Assembly: GCA_051362555.1 (NCBI GenBank)
Contig: CM120642.1
Coordinates: 32,364,001 to 32,428,000, forward strand
Source: Lingula anatina
Taxonomy: Eukaryota > Animalia > Brachiopoda
DNA: 64,000 nucleotides
Direction: 5' to 3'
A program made the translations under genes and the position numbers. The notes below the pieces were generated by a model. It was not told the origin of the DNA, made no database searches, and worked only from the letters and a program-made list of their open reading frames with translations. The stretch's first letter is position 1; each line of letters opens with the position of its first letter. Shown piece after piece: positions 16,476-62,798 of this stretch.

Positions 16476-19400
16476 GAAATTAAAAAAGGAGACACGCTGT
16501 TACATGTGGTAAAAGGATTATTCATTCTTACCTTCCACTGGCATCAGAACAGTATCAATCATGTGAACAACTCCATTAGACGCTATGATATCTGGTTCAA
16601 CTATTCTTGCCTTCAGTTTGTTAAGAGTGACGCCACTCCGGTCACAGTCTGCCTCCAGTTTTGAACCTGCTAGTGTTTTCAACGTCTGCTTGCGAGTAAT
16701 AAAGTTAGAGCAGATGGTACCTTTCACAACATGGTGCTGGAGAATTTCTGGAAAGAAAAAATTCAACCATATTAAACTTTTACAGGATACAGGCCCATAG
16801 GAACAGGCGGAGGTTCAAATTAGCCACACTTCTGGCTGGAAAAGGTCTGCTCAGATTCAAAGTTTTACCAGAGTTCTAAGCCTTTTCTCCAGCCGGTAAA
16901 AAGGTTTATTTCTTCAAAATGAAAAAAAAACCTTTATAGATGAAAAAAATGAGGGCTACAAGTCCAGCTTTTGTTTTTATTCTGCAGTGACAGCTTACAT
17001 ATATTAAAATAATCAAACACATCAAACAATCAATATGCTCAGCTTCTATAGACTCTTACAAAAGAAAATAGATGTCAAAACTGAAAAAAAAGTTCAGTGC
17101 AAACAAATGAAAACAGTAAGTAAATGTTTATTTGCTATCTTGTAAAACAATCTTTTTCCATCTCTCTAGCCATGCAATTTTAAAAAGACATAAGCTTACT
17201 AGTCAGCGCCTCTGTGTTAGCGAGGATATTAGTCAAGACCTCAGATGGGATCTTCTTGAAGGCATCCACGGTGGGGGCAAAGACGGTAAAGGGTCCATTT
17301 CTCATCAGGGGATCTGTCAGCCTGGTTCTGGCTATCAGGTCTTGGAGGGTCTGCAGGCGCTTGTCTTGGTAGATGATATTAGTGATGGTTTCTGGGTAAC
17401 GATCTAAAATCTTGTCGATAAGATGGATGATGCCATTGGTTGCAGGGATGTTGGGACGAGTTATCCTGGCACAATTGACAGTGGTGATCTGAATGGAACA
17501 AAAATGTCCAGCACTGAATCAATCCTTTGGTAATTGAAAATCTGTCCATGTGTCTTTATAAAAATTGAAGCCTTAAAATATATCAGCCTTACTTACTGGA
17601 CAAAACTTCAACTGTGAAACTAGTCCATGCTTTCATTACTTCTAAGCTTGATTATCGCATCAGTCTCTTATATGGTTTAGGCAAAAATCATCTGAACAAA
17701 CTTCAATTAATTCAAAAATCTGCAGCTAGGCTGGTAACTAAAATGGGATGGAACAGCCGAGAGCATATAACACCTGTTTTGATGGAACTTCACTGGCTTC
17801 CGGTTAGAGAGAGAATTTTATTTAAAATTTTATGTGTCATTTTTAAAGCAGTCACTGAGAATAAACCACTTTATATCTCAGAACTTATGAAGCAACATCA
17901 GCATGGAAGAGTTACCAGGTCTTCAACTTTAAGTCAATTTCTTTTAGAACACAGTGTCTTAGAGAAAAAAGCTGGTAAATTTTATGGTGAAAGGGCATTT
18001 ATGATATATGCACCCAAAGTTTGGAACACCTTACCCTCTGAAATACGAGCAGCAGGTGACATAGATACTTTTAAAAAGCTTTTGAAGACTCATATTTTTA
18101 GAATAGCCTTTCAGTAACTATCATATATTTAATTTTAGTTTTTAATAAGGTGTACTGTAATTTTATGATTAATTTTAAATGTTGTCACTTAAGTTTCTTA
18201 TCATTTTAGAATATGAAATAATTGGTTCTTTAAATTAGTTCTTAGTCCTTTAAAACTGTAATGTGTTCTTATACTAGTATTGTGTTATTTAGCTTTTTAA
18301 GTGAATGTTGTAAGGCGCATTGAGATTTTTAATGGAATGCGCCATAGAAAAATAAATTATTATTATTATTATTATTATTATTCATTACCTTTCAAATTCA
18401 TTACAACTGAATCACATTCCCAATCTGGATGCACCAATGAGCCTGATTTAAATTTTCATAAATGTACACCATGCTGTATGTTTCAACCCTTGTATCAGTC
18501 TCACTGAAAGTACATGCAATTCACTGTTCTTAATTTGATGTATCTATTGCTATCGATTAGACTTAAAGCAGGAAAAGCTCTGAACATTTGACGCTTTTCC
18601 GATTAGTTGTTTGAGAAATATTTTCCAAATCCCTGATGGAGGATTGTTGGCCACTCAGCACATGCTCACACTCACTCCAGTTTCCTTGTTGTTGACGACC
18701 ACCTTTCCAGGAATTGCCAGTGTCTCCAGTTCAAGTTCATCATCAAAGTCTTTCAGCTCTACCCCATTCTTTACGACATGGTACTGGAAACCTGGGTGGA
18801 AAATGTTAAATTTCTCATTATCTACTCAATTTGTACTTCAATCAAAATATTAATTCAGGCTGATAACAGTTTTGATGTAAAAGTTATATTAAAAGATTAT
18901 ATTTTACTTACAGTAGTTCATTTTTATCATTTTTTATGGTCACACACAAGCATAATTTGATATTTTATTTTTCTACAAGTCAAAGACCCAATGTCTCATT
19001 TAATCTTGTACAATGAATTTTTTTCAAATTTCATCTATAACTATTTCTTTAATCTGCATATCGTATGACTGTAAAATAAGTATATCATGAGTAATCATAC
19101 CCACATATCGATATTTCAAGTTGGCAGCAAAGTCTAAAACCAATGATCAGTACATGTAAAAGATCAGAAACTGATTAAACCAAAAACTTCAAATATTTGA
19201 TGCACATATAATAATCGTTAGGACAAGGTGACAGATATGCCACACCTTGACTGGTCCTAAGCCTTCTTCTGAGGTCTTTACTGGTCTTGTTGAAGACCTC
19301 ATTCACTGGGGCAAATAAAGTGTATGGTCCAGTGCGGGATAGTGTATACTGGACACCAGAATACCTGGCAGCATTGAGGAACTCTGTGGCACCAACATCA

Positions 19401-35249: not shown

Positions 35250-37563
35250 TCAATCTTCACTCTCTTCTTTATTCCATATCTTAGTCAGGCGCGGGGGTGG
35301 GGGCCTATTGGGCCTCTGTCTGATAGCACTGGCGCCCACCTGCAGGGGAGGAAAAACCGCCGACTCCACCTTACTGGGGACATCGATGGCACCATCTACT
35401 GAGCGCGTTCTTGGTCTCTGCCCAGGCCGCGGGGGTCTCTGCCCTGCTGCCTTTTTGTCACCTCTATCCGGGGTGGTGCTGTAACCTGATAACGTGTCAC
35501 TTTCAGATTGGCTTCTTTTGCTGAGTTTAGGAATTGTAACATGACCTTGTCCCAAGGTGGTTCTTGGTTTTGGTTTAACAGGTGTTCCACTCTCCTGGCC
35601 TTGACCTTGACCCATTTTTGACCGTGGTTTCGGCTGAGGTACGGTTCTTTCTGGTGTCCGATTTAATGGCGCACCATTGGAAGCTTGCTCCCCATCCTCA
35701 GAATCTCTACCATCAACTTTGTCTGATGTGGATCTCAGTTTTAAATTAGGTTTAACAGGCAGAGATGGCTTAAGTTTAGGAACTGCAGGCTTAGAGCTGT
35801 TACCTTCAACAGAAGCAACTACGGGAGAAGCTGCAGCAGCATCCTGAGGGACTGAACTCGCCTCTGGTCTCTTCCTTCTAGCTAGGATAGACTCTAATTC
35901 TGACATGTGAGATTCTCCATCATTGTTCTTGCGTACAGGCTTAATGGCAGCTATTGGTTTCTTTGGAAGATCTGGTTTGCTGCCTATGCCAACTCCTGGT
36001 TTACTACCTGAATCAATTCCCAATAAGACAGGGGGATGTTCTGTACTGTCTTGTTTCGTCTCCACTTGCTGGGTTTTTGGTTCATGCTTATTGTCAAACC
36101 CCCCTATATCAGTTGTTTGAGGGAGATGTAATGTTTGTCCTGTAACAGTTTGTTTTATTTTCTCTGGATCAGGGGGTTGCGGTCTAGGTGGTGGAGCGCG
36201 GTGAACTGGTCTGGAGACTTCAGTTGCATCCTTTCGTACCCTCTTTGTGGGAATTTTCACAAGGCGAGGTATCACCCATCTTGTGGGGACAGCAGGCTTC
36301 TCTTGCCTCTTCCTTATTATAGTTTTAATTCTATGAGCCTCTAGGTCTGCTGTGCTGCTTATCAACTGTGGGCCTGATATCTCAAAACTCTTCTTGCTGG
36401 TAGCACTCTCTGGGCTTGGCAAATCTGCCATTTCTATCGACTGGTCAGGTTTTTTGGGGAAATCAATTTTCGGCACATTGGGTTTTTTCTTTACCACTGC
36501 ACTGCTTGGGGAAAATGTTTTTAACTCTACATTTGCTTCAGGTGACTTTGGAGAAGACTTCTTTGTAGCTTTTGGAGCAGGTGGTGCTGGCCGTTTAGGC
36601 TTCCTCTTTAGCGTACTGCTCTTTGATAATTCTACAATGGGTGCCAGGGTACCACTTCCTGCCACACCTGATGATGTTGTTGTATCTGAAGCCAAGGTAG
36701 GTGGTGGTGGAAAATCTGAAAAATATTAAAAATATTCAACATGGTTATCTAATTCAGTTAAAGTTAAGATGAAAATTTAGAGTTTTCACTAATAAATTCA
36801 TCAAATTTAATATACCACTTAAAGTTTCTGGTGGAACATCTTTATAAATTTCATCTCTAACATTGACATTTTATTTAACAATAATTAAACAAAAGAAAAA
36901 ATGAACAGTCAATAATACAGCAATGAAAAACAAAAACAATAAACATTTTGAAACACAGTTTGAAACACAATGCAAATATGAAAATCACATACTTAAAAAC
37001 TGAAAAAACAACATGATTATAACATCCAGGCCTTCTACTCTGTACATTCTCCATTAAAATGAAGACCAAAAATATGATCAAAATCATTAAGAGGAAGCCG
37101 AAGAAGAAGAAGAGAACGAAGAAGAAATAGAAGAAACAGTGTACTTAACCATTATTTCACAATCAAAGCCATACTCACCAGATGATATAAATTCGATGTA
37201 TGATGCAGCAGAAACCCTTTGGTCATTGATTTGGTCAGTTGTCTGGTCAATGTCTCCTCTGCCAACACTGAGTTGGACATACTGGTAATCAGTGCTTTTA
37301 GGAACATCCTGGTCTTGGTCAATGATCTAGTGAAAAAAAAACTTTACAATGAGCATAAAGACAGTAAGTATACTTCAAAAATTGTACACTAATCTACATC
37401 TTTGTTTACTGTGTTTACAGTTAATTCTCATTACTTTCATTTTTGTTATATTTGATAAAATAAAAGATAATTCCACAACAAATTCATTTAGCTGACTTAA
37501 AAAGCATACATACTTGAGAAATCTGTCATAAGTATATTATGTGGCAACAACAACAACAACAAC

Positions 37564-37609
<46 letters not shown>

Positions 37610-39322
37610 AGACGTGATGCAATTTGCCACACTTACCTCTAGGTAGGAACCTGGAAACCAGCCCTGCTTTTTGCCATGGAGACCAAACCACCATCCATTT
37701 TCCATGATCTCCGTGACAACAATAAGGTCACCTGTGTTAAAGCTGAGGTCACCTGGCAGCTCAGAGTGGTATGCATACAGGGCCTGATGCTCTAAAACAC
37801 AATTTGAAACACACTTCATCATTATAAATATTCCATTATAGCTCAAACACACAAGGAATACTCAAATTACTCTTAACTTCACTTGTAATAATATTGCAAA
37901 TTTTCAAAATTCAACATTTAATGATATTCTCAAAAACATACTGTTTTTAAACAAAAAATGTTTTTAGAGTTAAAACATTAACTCTAATAATTCTTTAAAA
38001 ATTCAGAGTCACTTTTTCAGTTTAATATATATTTAAAATGATTACTCTAGCAAATAGTAAAAAAATAGGGTAAACCTGACTTAACAGTTTTTATTTACTG
38101 TATGTTGGAATTGTCTGAATGAAATGTCATAAGTCTACATAGTATGAATACACAAGGATATATGACTGGTAAGTAATGGGAATGCTAAAGCTAAACCAGG
38201 TTTTTGGGCAACAAAAAACCTAGAATCAATATCCTTTAGGTATTAAAAAATAATCTAGTATTCAAAATTAGTTCTCACCAATCCCAATGATGTCCTCTGC
38301 ACCATGATCACGTTGTTGATTCCTCTTTAGATGTTCATATGCTTTGGAATACAGAGGTTCCATAACCTACCAATGAAATTGGAATAGATAAACAGCTGTT
38401 AAATTTCAAAAATTCTGAAACAATTGTCATGAACAAGCAATTAATCTAATGACATTCAACATGTTCTTCATATATCAACTACAACATGGAAAACCAAAGG
38501 CGACATGCTTTTAAGCTGTTATTAACAATAGTAAATCATTCAATTTTAAAATAAAGAAATGACAAAGTTTACTTGTCTAATTACATTATCACAGGTATGT
38601 GCTTAACTTGCAGTCAGGACGTGTTGAACTTATGCAGACATTCAATAATGAAATACCAAAACAAATTTATGGCAAAATAGCAAAAAGCAATTATAGTGCA
38701 TACTACACACAAAATTAACCTTAGCCACCATTCAGAACAGTGGACTAACTAGTCCATGGATCAAAAATGGCGACCCACTGAAAACCTTGCCATCTAATCC
38801 CCTTATAGACACTGAATAGATTCCTCGCAGAAATTAGGCAACAAGCATTCAAGTGGGTCTGCCATGTTTGATACACGAACCAGTTTATCCGCTGTTGTGA
38901 ATGGGACCTTAGATTACACACTTCCGTCTCAACAGACTGGTCATCCCCTCCAACCTCTTGGACGTAACTGGACGGGAACCAGCCCTCCTCTCCAGAGACG
39001 TCCAGTGTCCCCCACATCCAGTCCTGCTGGTGATCTACAGCCTTCACTACTATCACGTCCCCTTCTGATAGCTCCAGCTCTCCAAACTCTGCCGCATGGT
39101 ACGGGTGGAGGACTTTGTAATACTTTTCCTGAATAGTTAAATGTTCTACATGTTTATAATGTATTAATATTGTTATTGAGTATTCCCTGCATATATATAT
39201 ATGTGCATGCATATAAAAGATGCAATGCAAGAATCCAAACAGTGAAGCAAATCAAATCATTTGAGTCTTGATCATGTCAAATCTAAAAACTGATATTCAA
39301 TAACACCAATGAATTTTGTTTT

Positions 39323-39391
<69 letters not shown>

Positions 39392-42300
39392 CTGTCTCTG
39401 GTTTTGACATAATGGATTCTGAAACCTCTAAAGATTTTCAACTTACAACTGTTAATACAACAATTCATTTGTTCCTTACCCTCTCTAGGAATATGGTGTT
39501 ATCATTAACATAGTCATTATGTGGTTGTTCTGTCTCCTGTTTGGTTTTCTTCTTCCCAAAGGTTTCAGCTGTAGTCTCAGTATAACCATAGTTAGAAATG
39601 CCTGTGGTTATAGAATAGAAAATAAAACAATAGTTTAATAAGATGAAAGTCCATAACAAACGCCTTCTTTTACCTCATTAATTGAATTTTGATGCAATCA
39701 AATGAAATGCAATACTCAGTACTGCTATTAGCACAAAAATTCATGCATCAGCATGCCTATTTACATTTTCTGACACACACACACACACACACTGTACATG
39801 GTAACACATGAAAAAAATGTGTAAATAACTGTATAATGACCACCAGCCAGCACAATCCATACCTCTGCTTCCCTTCACCACTTCCACATAATTGCCAGGA
39901 AACCACCCCTTCTTGTTTCCCAGTTTTCCCAGCCACCAGCCACTGTCATCCCGTTCCAGCACATCAATAAGGTCTCCTGAACACAGGGAGATCTGATCCT
40001 CTGCCTGGGATTTATATGGGTAAACCACTTCATACTGATTCACTACTGGAATGACACAAGTGATACCATTACTAATTTGACATTCGAAATTTTCATAAAT
40101 TCTGACCTTCCTGCTGGTCATTACTGCAGTAGACATTTTCCAATATTTACTGCACAATCCATCCAGATATCTTCTTAATTCATTTTTAAAGCTAAACGTA
40201 GACGGTAGAAGTAAGAAGGCCATTCACTGCAGCAAGTCCCTACTGCACACTCAGCACAGTGAAGATTGCATCTGTTTTTCTTTTCTTTCTTTCCTTATTT
40301 TTTGTTAAGAATGTCTTTTTCACGACCACTCATGCGGCAGTATACTTTTGTGCGTTTTTCTTCTGTTAAATATAACTGCAAAACTTAATGGACATGAAGT
40401 AAAGAAAATTTTACATCATGGAATTTCGCCAAAGTGATTGCTTTGGTGGAAACTGGAAAAGATCGGCAGTGGAACTCAGCACTTAATGAAAATCAAACGG
40501 TTCGGTAACAAACAAAACGCAATATTCCTTCAAATATTATAAATAAAAGTGCTCAAAAATCAATAAACCAACCACTTTTCGGAAGTGTTCCTATTTAGAC
40601 CTAACCACTAACGTACTTCACGGGCGCTGTACGGTCCAGAGCAGACTCCTCAATGTTTACAATCAGTAGTCGCGTGGTTCCGGTTTCAAGAATTGTGGGT
40701 ACAATATCTAGGTCAAGTTATAGAAAGGTAAAGGTCGAATCGGTTTGCAATCTTGTAAAACTGACTCAGATTCACATCTATCGATGCACAGCAGTGATGT
40801 GACCATGAAATTACCAAGGTTTTTACAACGAGTCACGGGCATTCGAAAGGTACGCTATGTCGGATTTTGAACTTAAAATTTCCTATCTACATCGTCACAG
40901 TCGGTGATCGAGTGAGTGACTGAGAGCATTTGTTCTCTAATAATTCTAATATTCAAATGCTTTGCAATTTGTTTATAAATGTTTAAAAAAATCGATGCTT
41001 GCTATTTATAGTCAAACTTAAAGAAAGATTTCTAATTAAAAGGTGGATTTCTTTATCTCATTTGTTAGTATGTTACTGCGTTTGTTTAAAACTTTAAACC
41101 GAATTGTGGCGAGATTTTATTTAATTATTTATGATATAAGTACAAACGCATGACTTAATTTTCGTGCTATAATGGAGCCTGAAAAAAAAATTACCTCAAA
41201 TTTATATATATGAATGTAAGAACTATAATAATCAAATTATTCCATGGAATTCCAACTAGCTTTTATATACTTTTCTTTTCTTTTCTTTCTTTCTTTTTTT
41301 TTTTTTTTTTAATAAACAATTTTTATCATGTCAATATCTCTTCCTTGCAGAGAAGGGAAAAAATGGTCCTAGAGTCGAAAAAGCAAGATACTTCAAGAGG
41401 AAATAAGCTTCTCAGAGCATACTGGGAGCCTGTCAAGAAGGCATGCCTCTCAGCACCCCAAAAGGGTGGTATATATGCAATAGGATTACGAGGTTTTAGG
41501 CATCCCATTTATATTGGACAGTCTAACAACATCAGAGACAGACTTCAAACACACTTTAGAAAGTCTTCTAATGTACAGGCAATAGACAAATTTGTTAACA
41601 TTATACCAAAGAGATTATTCAAGGTAAAATATGTGCAGGACAGGCACCATAAAGATTATGAAGGAGTCTATCTTGCACACAATCTGAAACACACAGGATC
41701 ATGGCCAGTGTTTAACTTAAAACATGGAAATAGTCGAAAGAAAAAGAGCTTCTGGAAATTTTGGGAATGGTGAAGACACCTTTGATTATTAATAATGTGT
41801 TAGAGGACATTTTACATGGTTCAGATTACTTCTCATCGGTCACTTGGCCATATTCATCCTGGCTTGATGTAGGTAATTGCAGGTGTCTATAATACAACTC
41901 TAGATAAAAAAAAAATAAATAAATAAAAAAAAATTCCAAGATCCACCCTGAAATTCCACCCTTAAAACAAATGTGTGTACATAATATTCTGTTATTTATA
42001 ATTTATTTATTTATGAGAGAGTGAGAGAGATTGGACTGTATAGTGCCTATAATTGGTAGTATATGGATGTGGCAGCCTTTTACTGAATTCCAAAAATGTT
42101 TCTATTTTGATTCCACAAATATGACTTGTATTGTTTAGATGCCATCTGAGAGCAAGTGATGAAAGTCTATTCACAGTTACAGAAAAAAAAAATTAGTTAC
42201 CTTCAGAAGTTCCTTCTTCTGCATCCAAGGGGCTGGAAATGACTTCTTTAGATAATTCTCTCCCAAAATGTCTGCCAGGTTTATGTATTGGCTGAAAAAC

Positions 42301-44437
42301 ATAATAAATATAAAATGAACCTTGTTTCTGTTTTTTTTACTATAAGATTATAAATGATTAATTTACCTTTATAACATACTTCTTTTGCACCAAAAACAAA
42401 AAATCCTGCTTTATGGCAAAGTTACTTAAGCGAACAACTGACCAGTTTATAATAACCAATGTGACAAACAATTATCAGAAAAAAAAACTCCAAAATTAAC
42501 CAATCCATATAAGATTCCATTTCAATAAAATACAGTTGGTGACAATTTTCACAAGTACACTCTATAATGATCTCAGCTAGGCCAGCTGTAGATGTCTACC
42601 TACATCTCGATATCTCCGCCTCCTACAGCAAATTATGTACAGGACACCTGCCGTTACCACTCCTATCAATACTACCACCACAGGGACTGATATCACAACT
42701 GCTGTCATCTCTGGGGACAAACCTGGAGAAAATTGTTCACAAGACACATTTAGCCAGATGATTTACAATAAAGACTTACAATAAAGAATGTTTATATAAT
42801 TTATTACAATCAATTCCAGCTCTTTTGAATGGAATTATTGTATTCAATAAGTGTAGCAGAAATACCTGACAATGTTTATTTTTAAAAGGCATTTCTGCTA
42901 CACCTGTGTGGAAAATACTATAAAATAAGTCATTCACATTTCAATAATGTGATGTCATTAATTGCAGAACATGTCTAAGAAATGCAATGCACAGTTAACT
43001 TGCCATGTCTCAAGCAGTCATAAAAATTCCATCTAATCTATAGGCATAAGAAATTCACTTTAACAAATATATCACCTTTAAATTTGAAAGATTATCATCA
43101 CTTTACAAAATACTTACAAACAGGTATAAAAGTCTAATCTACAGGCATAAAAATTTCACTTTAACAAAAATTTCACATTTAAATTTTAAAGACTATATTC
43201 ACTTCATGAAAATACTTACAAATAGGTTCAAAATTCTCTTACCTGTCTGTGCTTTGACTATGGTGGCATTACTCTCTGTGCTACTAACTGGGAGACTGGT
43301 GGTGAGTATTGGAGTACTGGAAGACTGGGTAGATGACCCCTGGGTACTGGCTGTTGACCCTGGGGTACTGGTTGTTGATCCTGGTGTACTGGTTGTTGAT
43401 GATACTGTCGTTGTAGAGGAAGTTGATGATGATGTTGTTGTTGTGGATGAACTAGTCATAGTTGTAGGTAATGTTGTTGTTGTTAGTGTCATAGTTGTAG
43501 GTAATGTTGCTGTTGTAGTAATAGGTGCTGCTGTTGTTGCTGTCATAGTTGTAGGTGCTGTTGTTGTTATTGTAGTTATAGGTGATGTCACTGTTGTTGA
43601 AGGCCTAGTAATATTTGTATCTGAAATTGTTGTTAATGACAATGTTGTCATTACTGTAGAACTTGAAGATGAAGATGAAGATGTTGTAGGTGAAGAAGAG
43701 GTACTGGTAGGAGTACCTGTAGTTATATTAGTTGTTGGGGTTGTAATATCTGTGGGTGTCACAGGCACAGTTATAGGTATTGCTGTTGTTGTCGCACCTG
43801 AAGATGAAGTTGGTGGCAAAGTTGTTGTTGTTATTGTTGTTGTTGTATTTAAAGTAGAAGTTTCTGTAGGCAATGTTACTGTTGAACTTTTTGGTGACAA
43901 CACAGTTGTTTTTGTAGTTGCTGTTGTTATGGAATATGAAACAGTTGTACGTAATAAAGAAGTGTCTGTGGAATTAGTTGTTGCTGTCAAATTATTCACA
44001 TTATCTTGAGTTGTGCTGTTGCCTGCAGCTTCCCTTGTGATAGGTACGGTGGACGAGGTGCTGGTGACAGCCGTCTTTCCTGTAGTTGTTGTTGACAACT
44101 CTGTTGCCATGGTTACAGTCTGATTCACAGCATTCTCACTCGGAGTTGAAGCAGTTGTGGCAGTACTGTTAGCCATTGTTGTTGTTGTTGTTGTTGGCAT
44201 TTGTTGACTGGTCTGTTTACTGTTATCAGTACTTGTTGTTGCCATGGTAGTGTTAGTCACACTTTCCAGAGGCGCAGTTGTCAGCGAAGAAGAATAAGAC
44301 TCATTAACTGATGGTGAAGCCAACGAAGTTACAGTTAAGTTAGTGTTCTCAGTTGAGGTGAAGTTACTGCCTCCAACAGCAGTGAATGGTGTTGTTATAA
44401 ACACAATACTTAACCAAGTTAACCAGTACAAACTCAT
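35250..44437 (-). CDS. Predicted type I membrane protein: mucin-like ectodomain + TM + three SH3 domains + Pro/Lys-rich tail (~1257 aa, 10 coding exons)
   Basis: Exons 44437-43243 (signal peptide and Ser/Thr stalk), 42722-42604 (TM AVVISVPVVVVLIGVVTAGVLYII-CCRRRR), 42291-42201, 40045-39863 (SH3: YPYKSQAEDQISL..GWWLG..GWFPGNYV), 39601-39480, 39128-38922 (SH3: GWFPSSYV), 38366-38279, 37791-37637 (SH3: ALYAY..GWWFG..GWFPGSYL), 37326-37179, 36715-35250. All junctions GT-AG and in phase (3774 nt). Individual exons are high confidence; the 42201-to-40045 join is the least certain. Alternative in-frame ATG at 44461. Confidence 0.75.
39326..39387. repeat. (TA)n microsatellite
   Basis: Direct reading. 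Confidence 0.95.
40805..41773 (+). CDS. Stand-alone GIY-YIG nuclease-family protein, 155 aa, 2 exons, nested antisense in an intron of the mucin-SH3 gene
   Basis: Exon 1 40805-40849 (accATG, MKLPRFLQRVTGIRK, donor aag|gtacgc); exon 2 41351-41773 (acceptor ttccttgcag), phase 0. Motifs P-QKG-GIY-AI, IYIGQS, NIRDRLQTH, YEGVYL, WPVFN. AATAAA at 41914. Confidence 0.8.
43032..43227. repeat. Diverged ~101-bp tandem duplication next to the mucin exon donor
   Basis: tctaatcta.aggcataa.aa.ttcactttaacaaa...aaaatacttacaaa.aggt twice. Confidence 0.8.
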
Positions 44438-45204
44438 GGTTTGGAATGTTAAAGCTATCATCTTCCTATAAAGAATCATTGCTAAGTAATGGGAGCATAC
44501 AAATATATATATAAACGCTGAAGACACTGTTATATAATGTGGAAAACTTATCAAATATGGAATGGTAAATACAAAATGGAATGCTTAGGTAAACTGTCTT
44601 AAAAATGTACAAAAATATGATTGTCTGATATACTTAGCTTTTCTGCAAGACTAATTTGTAGACAAAAATTATTTGAGAAAATCACATTGATACGAATACC
44701 ATCTCTATTTAACACTGTAAATGCACCAATCTATAGTTTTGTCTTGTCTCTTTTCATCAACAAGATAACAAGGCATCTCTGGATAACCTCTAACCTCATA
44801 TTTCATACACTGCTTTGGTTCTTTCCAACCTAGTCAATACATTGCAAAAAGACCATATTAAAGCCACAAAATAATTACAGCAGTTTCACTGTTACTGTAT
44901 GAATCATCACTTGCCGTGACAGCCAGAACAACTGCAGAAAGCCTCTTTCTCTGGTGGCTGGTCGCAAACAACTTGTTTTTCTCAGTGTCTAAAACGGAGT
45001 CAATATGTTTCACAGCTGTCCTCATTCAGTTGAAGTGTTACTTTGCTACTTTTAGTCAACCAATTTGATTATTCTCTCAATGCTGCCAGCACGATCTATA
45101 CTGTCTATGCATTTCTTTGCCATCTTAGTGCAGCCAACATATTCTGTTGTTGCCTAAATGCAGGCAACTTTTTTTTTGTCAATGTAAATAAGTCAGAGTG
45201 TTTA

Positions 45205-54387: not shown

Positions 54388-62798
<8,411 letters not shown>

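Follow-up and report, generated by a model that had tools for sequence, protein, structure and literature searches.

Cell-surface receptors of animals normally recruit SH3 adaptors as separate proteins. The membrane mucins and sialomucins (CD43, CD34/podocalyxin, MUC1) and the yeast Msb2/Hkr1 proteins have short cytoplasmic tails that are not known to contain folded domains, and adaptors of the LAT/PAG type have a very short ectodomain, juxtamembrane cysteines and tyrosine motifs, again with no known folded domains. CIN85/CD2AP (SH3KBP1), in which three SH3 domains precede a proline-rich region, are cytosolic and have SH3-A at the N-terminus. Here we describe a gene of the brachiopod Lingula anatina in which an SH3 adaptor is built into a membrane mucin. 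It lies on a 64,000 nt stretch of DNA (GenBank assembly GCA_051362555.1, contig CM120642.1, positions 32,364,001 to 32,428,000; hereafter the window, numbered from its first letter), where ten minus-strand coding exons, from 44437 down to 35250, join into a single frame of 1257 amino acids (aa) with one terminal stop. This layout, together with short tail motifs, is common to a homoscleromorph sponge, an annelid, the brachiopod and molluscs, and points to an unnamed part of the early animal cell-surface toolkit. It offers a testable case of coupling between glycocalyx and cell cortex within a single chain, approachable in oyster, mussel or sponge cells.

With the membrane mucins and Msb2/Hkr1 the Lingula protein shares a Ser/Thr-rich, Cys-free stalk, one predicted transmembrane (TM) helix and a basic juxtamembrane stretch. 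Cys and Tyr motifs are shared with the LAT/PAG type, from which the protein differs by its long stalk and its SH3 domains, whereas the difference from CIN85/CD2AP lies in the stalk and TM helix that precede SH3-1, across a junction supported by RNA reads. The general layout has a precedent, because Fus1 of Saccharomyces cerevisiae crosses the membrane once, is O-glycosylated and has an SH3 domain and a proline-rich region in a long cytosolic tail (PMC2063912, PMC3718343), which holds the protein at the mating tip (PMC2063912). Both proteins are single-pass and Ser/Thr-rich with a cytosolic SH3 and a Pro-rich region, but Fus1 has one SH3 domain whereas members of the TM-SH3 family described below have three or four, and their stalk is much longer; the likeness is one of layout, for which we assume convergence. 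An initial annotation of the locus, made from the sequence, had stated that yeast splits the two roles between the mucins Msb2/Hkr1 and the TM-SH3 protein Sho1, which is too narrow given that Fus1 is a single protein of this general layout. Sho1 itself is reported to have four TM helices and one SH3 domain, against one and three in Lingula.

Two chytrid proteins (Rhizoclosmatium KAJ3081863 and Siphonaria sp. KAJ3028075) have one TM helix followed by 9-10 tandem SH3 domains. Such chytrid proteins are auto-named 'Sorbin and SH3 domain-containing protein 2', and nine SH3s from one of them form their own group (97) in a quick single-domain tree, as expected of a separate expansion. Intersectin, SH3D19, SORBS and DNMBP were also considered as assignments and set aside: there is no EH, DH, BAR or SoHo domain, SH3 being the only domain above the Pfam cut-off.

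Structure and transcription of the gene

All nine introns obtained by joining the exons by coordinates are GT-AG. The initial annotation had placed the mucin stalk, the TM helix, three SH3 domains and the Pro-rich tail in one gene by way of two small exons, and the 1257 aa frame, the splice signals and 23 of 27 reads at the disputed junction bear this out. There was real reason to doubt the fusion, because intron 3 (42200-40046) contains a CpG-rich patch, a possible terminal exon in the right phase and, on the opposite strand, an open reading frame (ORF) that weakly matches GIY-YIG.

Raw RNA reads of the same species from four runs (X1, X4, X5 and X7) belonging to three studies were aligned on 39815-41240, with 6-25% of each run used and 84 reads placed. 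Mates were counted as separate reads, so read counts may exceed molecule counts. Among the 27 reads listed with loose ends at the SH3-1 acceptor, 23, from three of the four runs and three studies, carry the end of the linker exon, the loose ends matching the genome from 42203 onward. These comprise 3 reads from X1, 4 from X5 and 12 from X7 across the 42201-to-40045 junction, and 4 further X7 reads at an in-frame NAGNAG acceptor 3 nt downstream; X4, with 4 reads placed, has no listed read at this junction. Twenty-one X7 reads cross the 39863-to-39601 junction. For the seven other junctions, which include mucin-to-TM, TM-to-linker and five downstream, the support comes from splice signals, from the RefSeq model and from orthologues.

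That RefSeq model, XP_023932918.1 ('uncharacterized protein LOC106176107', Lingula anatina, 1299 aa, 97% identity), was the sole protein found with the SH3-1 exon as query, and the near-identity suggests that the window most likely carries another haplotype. It already fuses the mucin, TM and SH3 exons, and starts at 44479, 14 codons earlier than the start used here, upstream of which there are in-frame ATGs. Its exon after SH3-1 is longer than ours and adds a hydrophobic insert, which was rejected because the 21 X7 reads splice to the acceptor at 39601.

The mucin, TM and SH3 exons therefore belong to one real, fused gene. A false merger of two separate genes, one for a mucin-TM protein and one for a cytosolic SH3 adaptor, on either side of an intron with its own promoter and nested gene would fit the contents of intron 3 (the CpG-rich promoter, the nested antisense gene and the in-phase candidate terminal exon at 41899-41826), but a merge is refuted at the junction by 23 reads from three studies, and with the same layout in 22 named species it is extremely improbable. 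The candidate terminal exon could yield a mucin-TM isoform without SH3 domains.

The remaining 4 of the 27 loose-end reads, all from X1, join an internal exon ending at 40617 to SH3-1. The promoter that had been postulated at about 40.6 kb thus does make some SH3-exon transcripts (4 reads, one run), but it is not their only source: 23 reads come from the linker exon, contrary to the scenario, raised in the initial annotation, of SH3 exons transcribed solely from this promoter. A soluble SH3 adaptor from the internal CpG promoter might even be the main working product and the membrane form secondary, as X1 has 4 internal-exon reads versus 3 linker-exon reads at SH3-1, the promoter is CpG-rich and six oyster-like records are without a TM helix. 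The internal transcript is, however, not simply the full soluble triple-SH3 protein, because an in-frame TGA precedes the junction and the SH3-1 exon has no in-frame ATG; a soluble product needs a GTG start, or loses SH3-1 and most of SH3-2. Internal-exon reads are listed in no other run, the start of the six TM-less records at an internal Val looks like a gene-caller start, and all 14 further Ostrea isoforms listed retain the TM helix. A mainly soluble role is very unlikely.

The protein agrees with what had been read from the DNA, namely a Ser/Thr stalk of ~375 aa with N-x-S/T sites, a TM helix, CCRRRR and three SH3 domains. Residues 24-398 are free of Cys and contain 211 Ser/Thr in 375 (56%) and 13 N-x-S/T sequons; a single hydrophobic segment follows (residues 398-433, Kyte-Doolittle cut-off >1.6), then CCRRRR, and three SH3 domains score above the Pfam cut-off. 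The stalk and tail ORFs have no Pfam match, and neither a SEA domain of the MUC1 type nor a CD34/podocalyxin-specific tail matched the Lingula protein in Pfam up to E 1. By eye the C-terminus is Pro-rich, and the linkers contain the Tyr motifs DYVN, YEHL, YVQL and YIEF. Signal peptide (11-residue hydropathy maximum 1.92) and TM helix were called by hydropathy only; the predicted topology is N-out/C-in, with the stalk predicted to be O-glycosylated and the juxtamembrane Cys residues to be palmitoylated. A fourth SH3 exon was not found in the window with tblastn and a family profile in six frames, the best downstream match having an E of about 2. Three bases past the stop codon, at about 35247, the minus strand has a strong splice-donor-like sequence (ATG/GTGAGT), possibly marking an intron in the 3′ untranslated region.

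A family with the same layout in a sponge and lophotrochozoans

Relatives were gathered by protein searches and name look-ups, from which the best 120 of 1686 and the best 150 of 9185 matches were examined. Among the matches listed, 19 mollusc species, the annelid Owenia fusiformis, the sponge Oscarella pearsei and one further record combine an ectodomain rich in Ser/Thr with a single TM helix, SH3 domains and a tail rich in Pro. The search among relatives for a TM helix with three SH3 domains that had been suggested at the outset thereby returned the same layout in 22 named species among these matches. Database models of the family are XP_023932918 (Lingula), XP_067664002 (Haliotis), XP_050415356 (Patella), XP_056011424 (Ostrea), CAH1776870 (Owenia) and EP00118_P007595 (Oscarella), the last marked by its record name as a complete ORF from a transcriptome assembly. 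The family has stayed unnamed because automatic annotation gave its entries unrelated labels ('uncharacterized', 'serine-rich adhesin-like', 'dynamin-binding protein', 'intersectin', 'SH3PXD2A-like', 'mucin-2-like'), none of which names the TM-SH3 layout.

A TM helix lies upstream of the SH3 domains in 23 of 29 family proteins examined (22 named species and one further record). The six without it are records near the oyster protein that start at an internal Val of the oyster sequence, and they were excluded from later counts. Ser/Thr makes up 27-53% of the ectodomain among the 23 TM members, apart from the further record just mentioned, where it is 18%. In all 23, K/R are richer after the TM helix than before it, and 21 have juxtamembrane Cys. 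Between models the length of the stalk differs greatly, the shortest having about 60 residues and the longest more than 1000, and the Bradybaena model has only two SH3 domains. Fifteen of the 23 have a degenerate fourth SH3 at the C-terminus, which is present in neither Lingula nor Owenia; because the Owenia model is also without it, we do not treat a fourth SH3 as a requirement for the family, to which the Lingula protein belongs by its TM helix, its position-matched SH3 triad and its PxxPxR-(basic)VKIP tail motif. In the ESM Atlas, the Lingula and sponge regions are nearest to one and the same 89-member, mostly mollusc cluster (scores 0.90 and 0.91). Among 290 other SH3 proteins screened, a hydrophobic stretch lies upstream in 7, these being 2 Patella isoforms of the family, 3 chytrid TM-multi-SH3 proteins and 2 others.

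We conclude that this is a real, old, early-animal family. The receptor-adaptor fusion envisaged initially is not a one-off, as relatives reach a sponge, an annelid and molluscs. The accompanying statement that no animal family of this architecture has been described stands in so far as no description of a TM-SH3x3-Pro layout was found in the literature, judged from titles and abstract openings; it needs amending in that the apparently undescribed family is already in the databases, as misnamed models.

Relationship of the SH3 domains to CIN85/CD2AP

Lingula SH3-1, SH3-2 and SH3-3 score best against mollusc profiles of the same position, built without Lingula (80.5, 56.3 and 92.5 bits), and reach at most 68.1, 42.4 and 41.8 bits against CIN85-like profiles. 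A concatenated tree of the SH3 triad (21 rows, 170 columns) had only CIN85-like and SORBS rows as outgroups, two of the CIN85-like rows being named SH3KBP1(-like). Support was 96/93 for the lophotrochozoan members, 81/87 for the whole family and 91/94 for the CIN85-like rows, and forcing Lingula into the CIN85-like group was rejected by the approximately unbiased (AU) test (p-AU 0.0376). Orthology with SH3 domains A, B and C of CIN85/CD2AP is ruled out by profiles, trees and this test, and since the triad stands apart by the AU test, the gene is not a recent CIN85 fusion.

The quick single-domain tree (121 rows, 56 columns) is poorly resolved. In it, Lingula SH3-3 joins the Owenia and mollusc SH3-3 domains (98), and the fourth SH3 of the sponge joins that of the molluscs (81), while SH3-1 and SH3-3 of Lingula fall within the TM family and SH3-2 in a weak mixed group (80). 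The SH3 phylogeny proposed in the initial annotation thus separates the domains from CIN85/CD2AP and assigns two of the three to the TM family, leaving SH3-2 loosely placed. As the sponge's first three SH3s, like Lingula SH3-2, are unresolved or misplaced, the case for including the sponge comes less from the SH3 tree than from layout, the fourth SH3 and the tail motif. A search of the PDB returned generic SH3 matches only (p47phox, Grb2 and others).

Tail motifs and proposed function

A KRAP-like motif follows SH3-3 in 19 of 21 tails by a loose pattern and in 15 by a strict one, where shuffling predicts 0.4 and 0.3. The core tail motif, [LIV]PxR...[VI][KR][ILV]P, is matched in 12 of 21 tails, the sponge included, with 0.0 expected by shuffling; a preceding Pro turns it into a class II PxxPxR site, and PPRP comes after it. 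Plain PxxPxR, present in 18 of 21 against 8.7 expected, is weak evidence. KRAP and RKKAPPPP motifs bind the syndapin SH3 domain (PMC8282341). The linker between SH3-2 and SH3-3 contains YxxL in 21 of 23 members, the sponge member being without it. In a structure model of the Patella orthologue, three folded SH3 domains are joined by disordered linkers in no fixed arrangement (predicted template modelling score, pTM, 0.29), and the conserved YxxL is the start of a helix, H309-317, with a predicted local distance difference test score (pLDDT) of about 54-76.

We propose, with a probability of roughly 0.55, that the protein serves as a scaffold tethered to the membrane, where it brings together proteins of actin assembly and of membrane bending (endocytosis) beneath a patch of glycocalyx. 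The three flexibly linked SH3 domains would bind PxxP motifs of dynamin- or WASP-type partners, and the KRAP-like motif would recruit an F-BAR protein of the syndapin type. The conserved PxxPxR-(basic)VKIP element could bind one of the protein's own SH3 domains, either in cis, as a latch, or in trans, clustering copies. Because the stalk has no folded domain and its length varies widely between species, its effect is more likely one of bulk, spacing and sorting than of binding to a single ligand.

Several observations weigh against such a scaffold. The polar localisation of Fus1 is unaffected by loss of its SH3 domain or proline-rich site (PMC2063912), so domain content need not predict function. 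The motif patterns were drafted after the sequences had been seen, related species are not independent, and Lingula fits only the loose KRAP pattern. The support for the whole family (81/87) is not starred, the second and third SH3 domains of the sponge have their highest scores with the profile of mollusc SH3-1, and the mucin-to-TM and TM-to-linker junctions lie outside the read-covered 39815-41240. Only 3 of 23 members start with a sequence resembling a signal peptide (Lingula 1.92, Oscarella 1.75, Plakobranchus 2.81), so for surface delivery the others need an N-out signal anchor or must be missing 5′ exons. Most mollusc and annelid models have a long Ser/Thr N-terminus without a signal peptide and several begin with a possible N-glycan site, which would fit N-out signal-anchored proteins; signal-less members may be N-out signal anchors with unusually long ectodomains, or may have lost their first exons from the models.

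The initial annotation had suggested a glycocalyx or mechanical sensor. The stalk might then sense crowding or osmotic or mechanical stress, or be shed, the tail then opening so that its SH3 domains recruit a kinase or small-GTPase module. A signalling mucin of this kind would do alone what yeast divides between Msb2/Hkr1 and Sho1. A mucin stalk and an SH3 adaptor are indeed on a single chain, and the self-complementary PxxPxR motif could serve as a latch. In yeast, Msb2 is reported to be activated by ectodomain cleavage, and Sho1 to act in osmosensing. Lingula and Owenia also have in common the motif EIS[G/T]PQL[I/V]SST, which we take to be half-CRIB-like, but a CRIB-like motif was matched in only 3 of 19 proteins checked; Pfam finds no SEA or other folded domain in the ectodomain, and the stalk spans the roughly 60 to over 1000 residues noted above. 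We regard a sensor as doubtful.

The Tyr motifs raise a different prospect, a Tyr-phosphorylated adhesion or immune receptor in which binding of a lectin or cell would cluster the stalk, Src-type kinases would phosphorylate the tail and SH2 proteins would dock, much as in LAT/PAG or nephrin with the adaptor built in. It draws on the juxtamembrane Cys and the YxxL, each in 21 of 23 members, and on the further linker tyrosines of Lingula. The YxxL may, however, be structural, because it is modelled as a helix start in the Patella orthologue; it is lacking in the sponge, and the other Lingula tyrosines are not seen as conserved columns. This we consider unlikely.

The scaffold proposal has a broader and more speculative extension, in which an early-animal receptor family of sponges and lophotrochozoans, perhaps lost in the main model animals, unites the SH3 and the proline half of a multivalent system in a single chain anchored in the membrane. 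Such a chain could polymerise or phase-separate on the membrane alone, and its mucin stalk could set or sense how dense the clusters are, although we would put this well below an even chance. Nephrin-Nck-N-WASP and LAT-Grb2-SOS form multi-protein clusters, of which this would be the one-protein version.

Other features of the window

Table 1. Coding exons of the TM-SH3 gene and features of its third intron (window positions).
Feature	Position	Strand	Remarks
Coding exon 1	44437-43243	-	Hydrophobic N-terminus (predicted signal peptide) and Ser/Thr-rich, Cys-free mucin-like stalk
TM exon	42722-42604	-	Single hydrophobic helix, CC (predicted palmitoylation), RRRR stop-transfer; also in RefSeq model
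Juxtamembrane linker exon	42291-42201	-	3′ end joined to SH3-1 by 23 RNA reads
SH3-1 exon	40045-39863	-	Main acceptor 40045; NAGNAG alternative 40042 (4 reads, one Val fewer)
Linker exon with Tyr motifs NYGY, DYVN	39601-39480	-	Acceptor 39601 read-supported versus longer RefSeq version
SH3-2 exon	39128-38922	-	Pfam SH3
SH3-2/3 linker exon	38366-38279	-	Conserved YxxL motif (AYEHLKRNQ)
SH3-3 exon	37791-37637	-	Best-conserved SH3 within the TM-SH3 family
Linker exon with Tyr motifs DYQYVQL, SYIEF	37326-37179	-	
Pro-rich tail exon	36715-35250	-	KRAP-like KRPAPPAP; KPAVPTR...LVKIP then PPPRPQPP; stop codon; no fourth SH3
CpG-rich internal region, inferred bidirectional promoter	40501-41000	both	Observed/expected 1.25 versus 0.0-0.62 in the other 25 bins
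Alternative first exon	40617-40660 (5′ end approximate)	-	Donor after 40617, joined to 40045; 4 X1 reads; in-frame TGA just before junction
Nested antisense gene, coding part of first exon	40805-40849	+	In-frame ATG 40805, donor after 40849; 4 X5 junction reads
Nested antisense gene, second exon, GIY-YIG-like domain	41351-41773	+	PF01541 E 3.9e-4, below Pfam cut-off
Candidate in-phase alternative terminal exon	41899-41826	-	Strong acceptor, short ORF ending in stop

The plus-strand junction 40849-to-41351 in intron 3 is crossed by 4 X5 reads; the nested antisense gene is therefore expressed as a spliced transcript, and the CpG patch is active in both directions. The gene's product, 151 aa if translation begins at the ATG at 40805, has a basic N-terminus, and a single-sequence fold of this GIY-YIG-like protein has a pLDDT of 41.6, too low for use. 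A comparison with viral sequences yielded 35 candidate stretches, of which no more than 4 were look-alike loci, all weak (E 1e-4 to 2e-4).

Elsewhere in the window, a plus-strand ORF of 182 aa at 17569-18117 has no Pfam match and looks to us like the C-terminal part of a reverse transcriptase of a long interspersed nuclear element (LINE). Upstream of the TM-SH3 gene, minus-strand exons of another SH3 domain lie at 59546-59674 and about 62825 (Pfam SH3_1, E 3e-8); the sequence may be akin to the SH3 domains of Tec/Btk kinases. In a downstream gene, a minus-strand exon at 17213-17416 encodes a fasciclin (FAS1) domain (E 8.5e-10).

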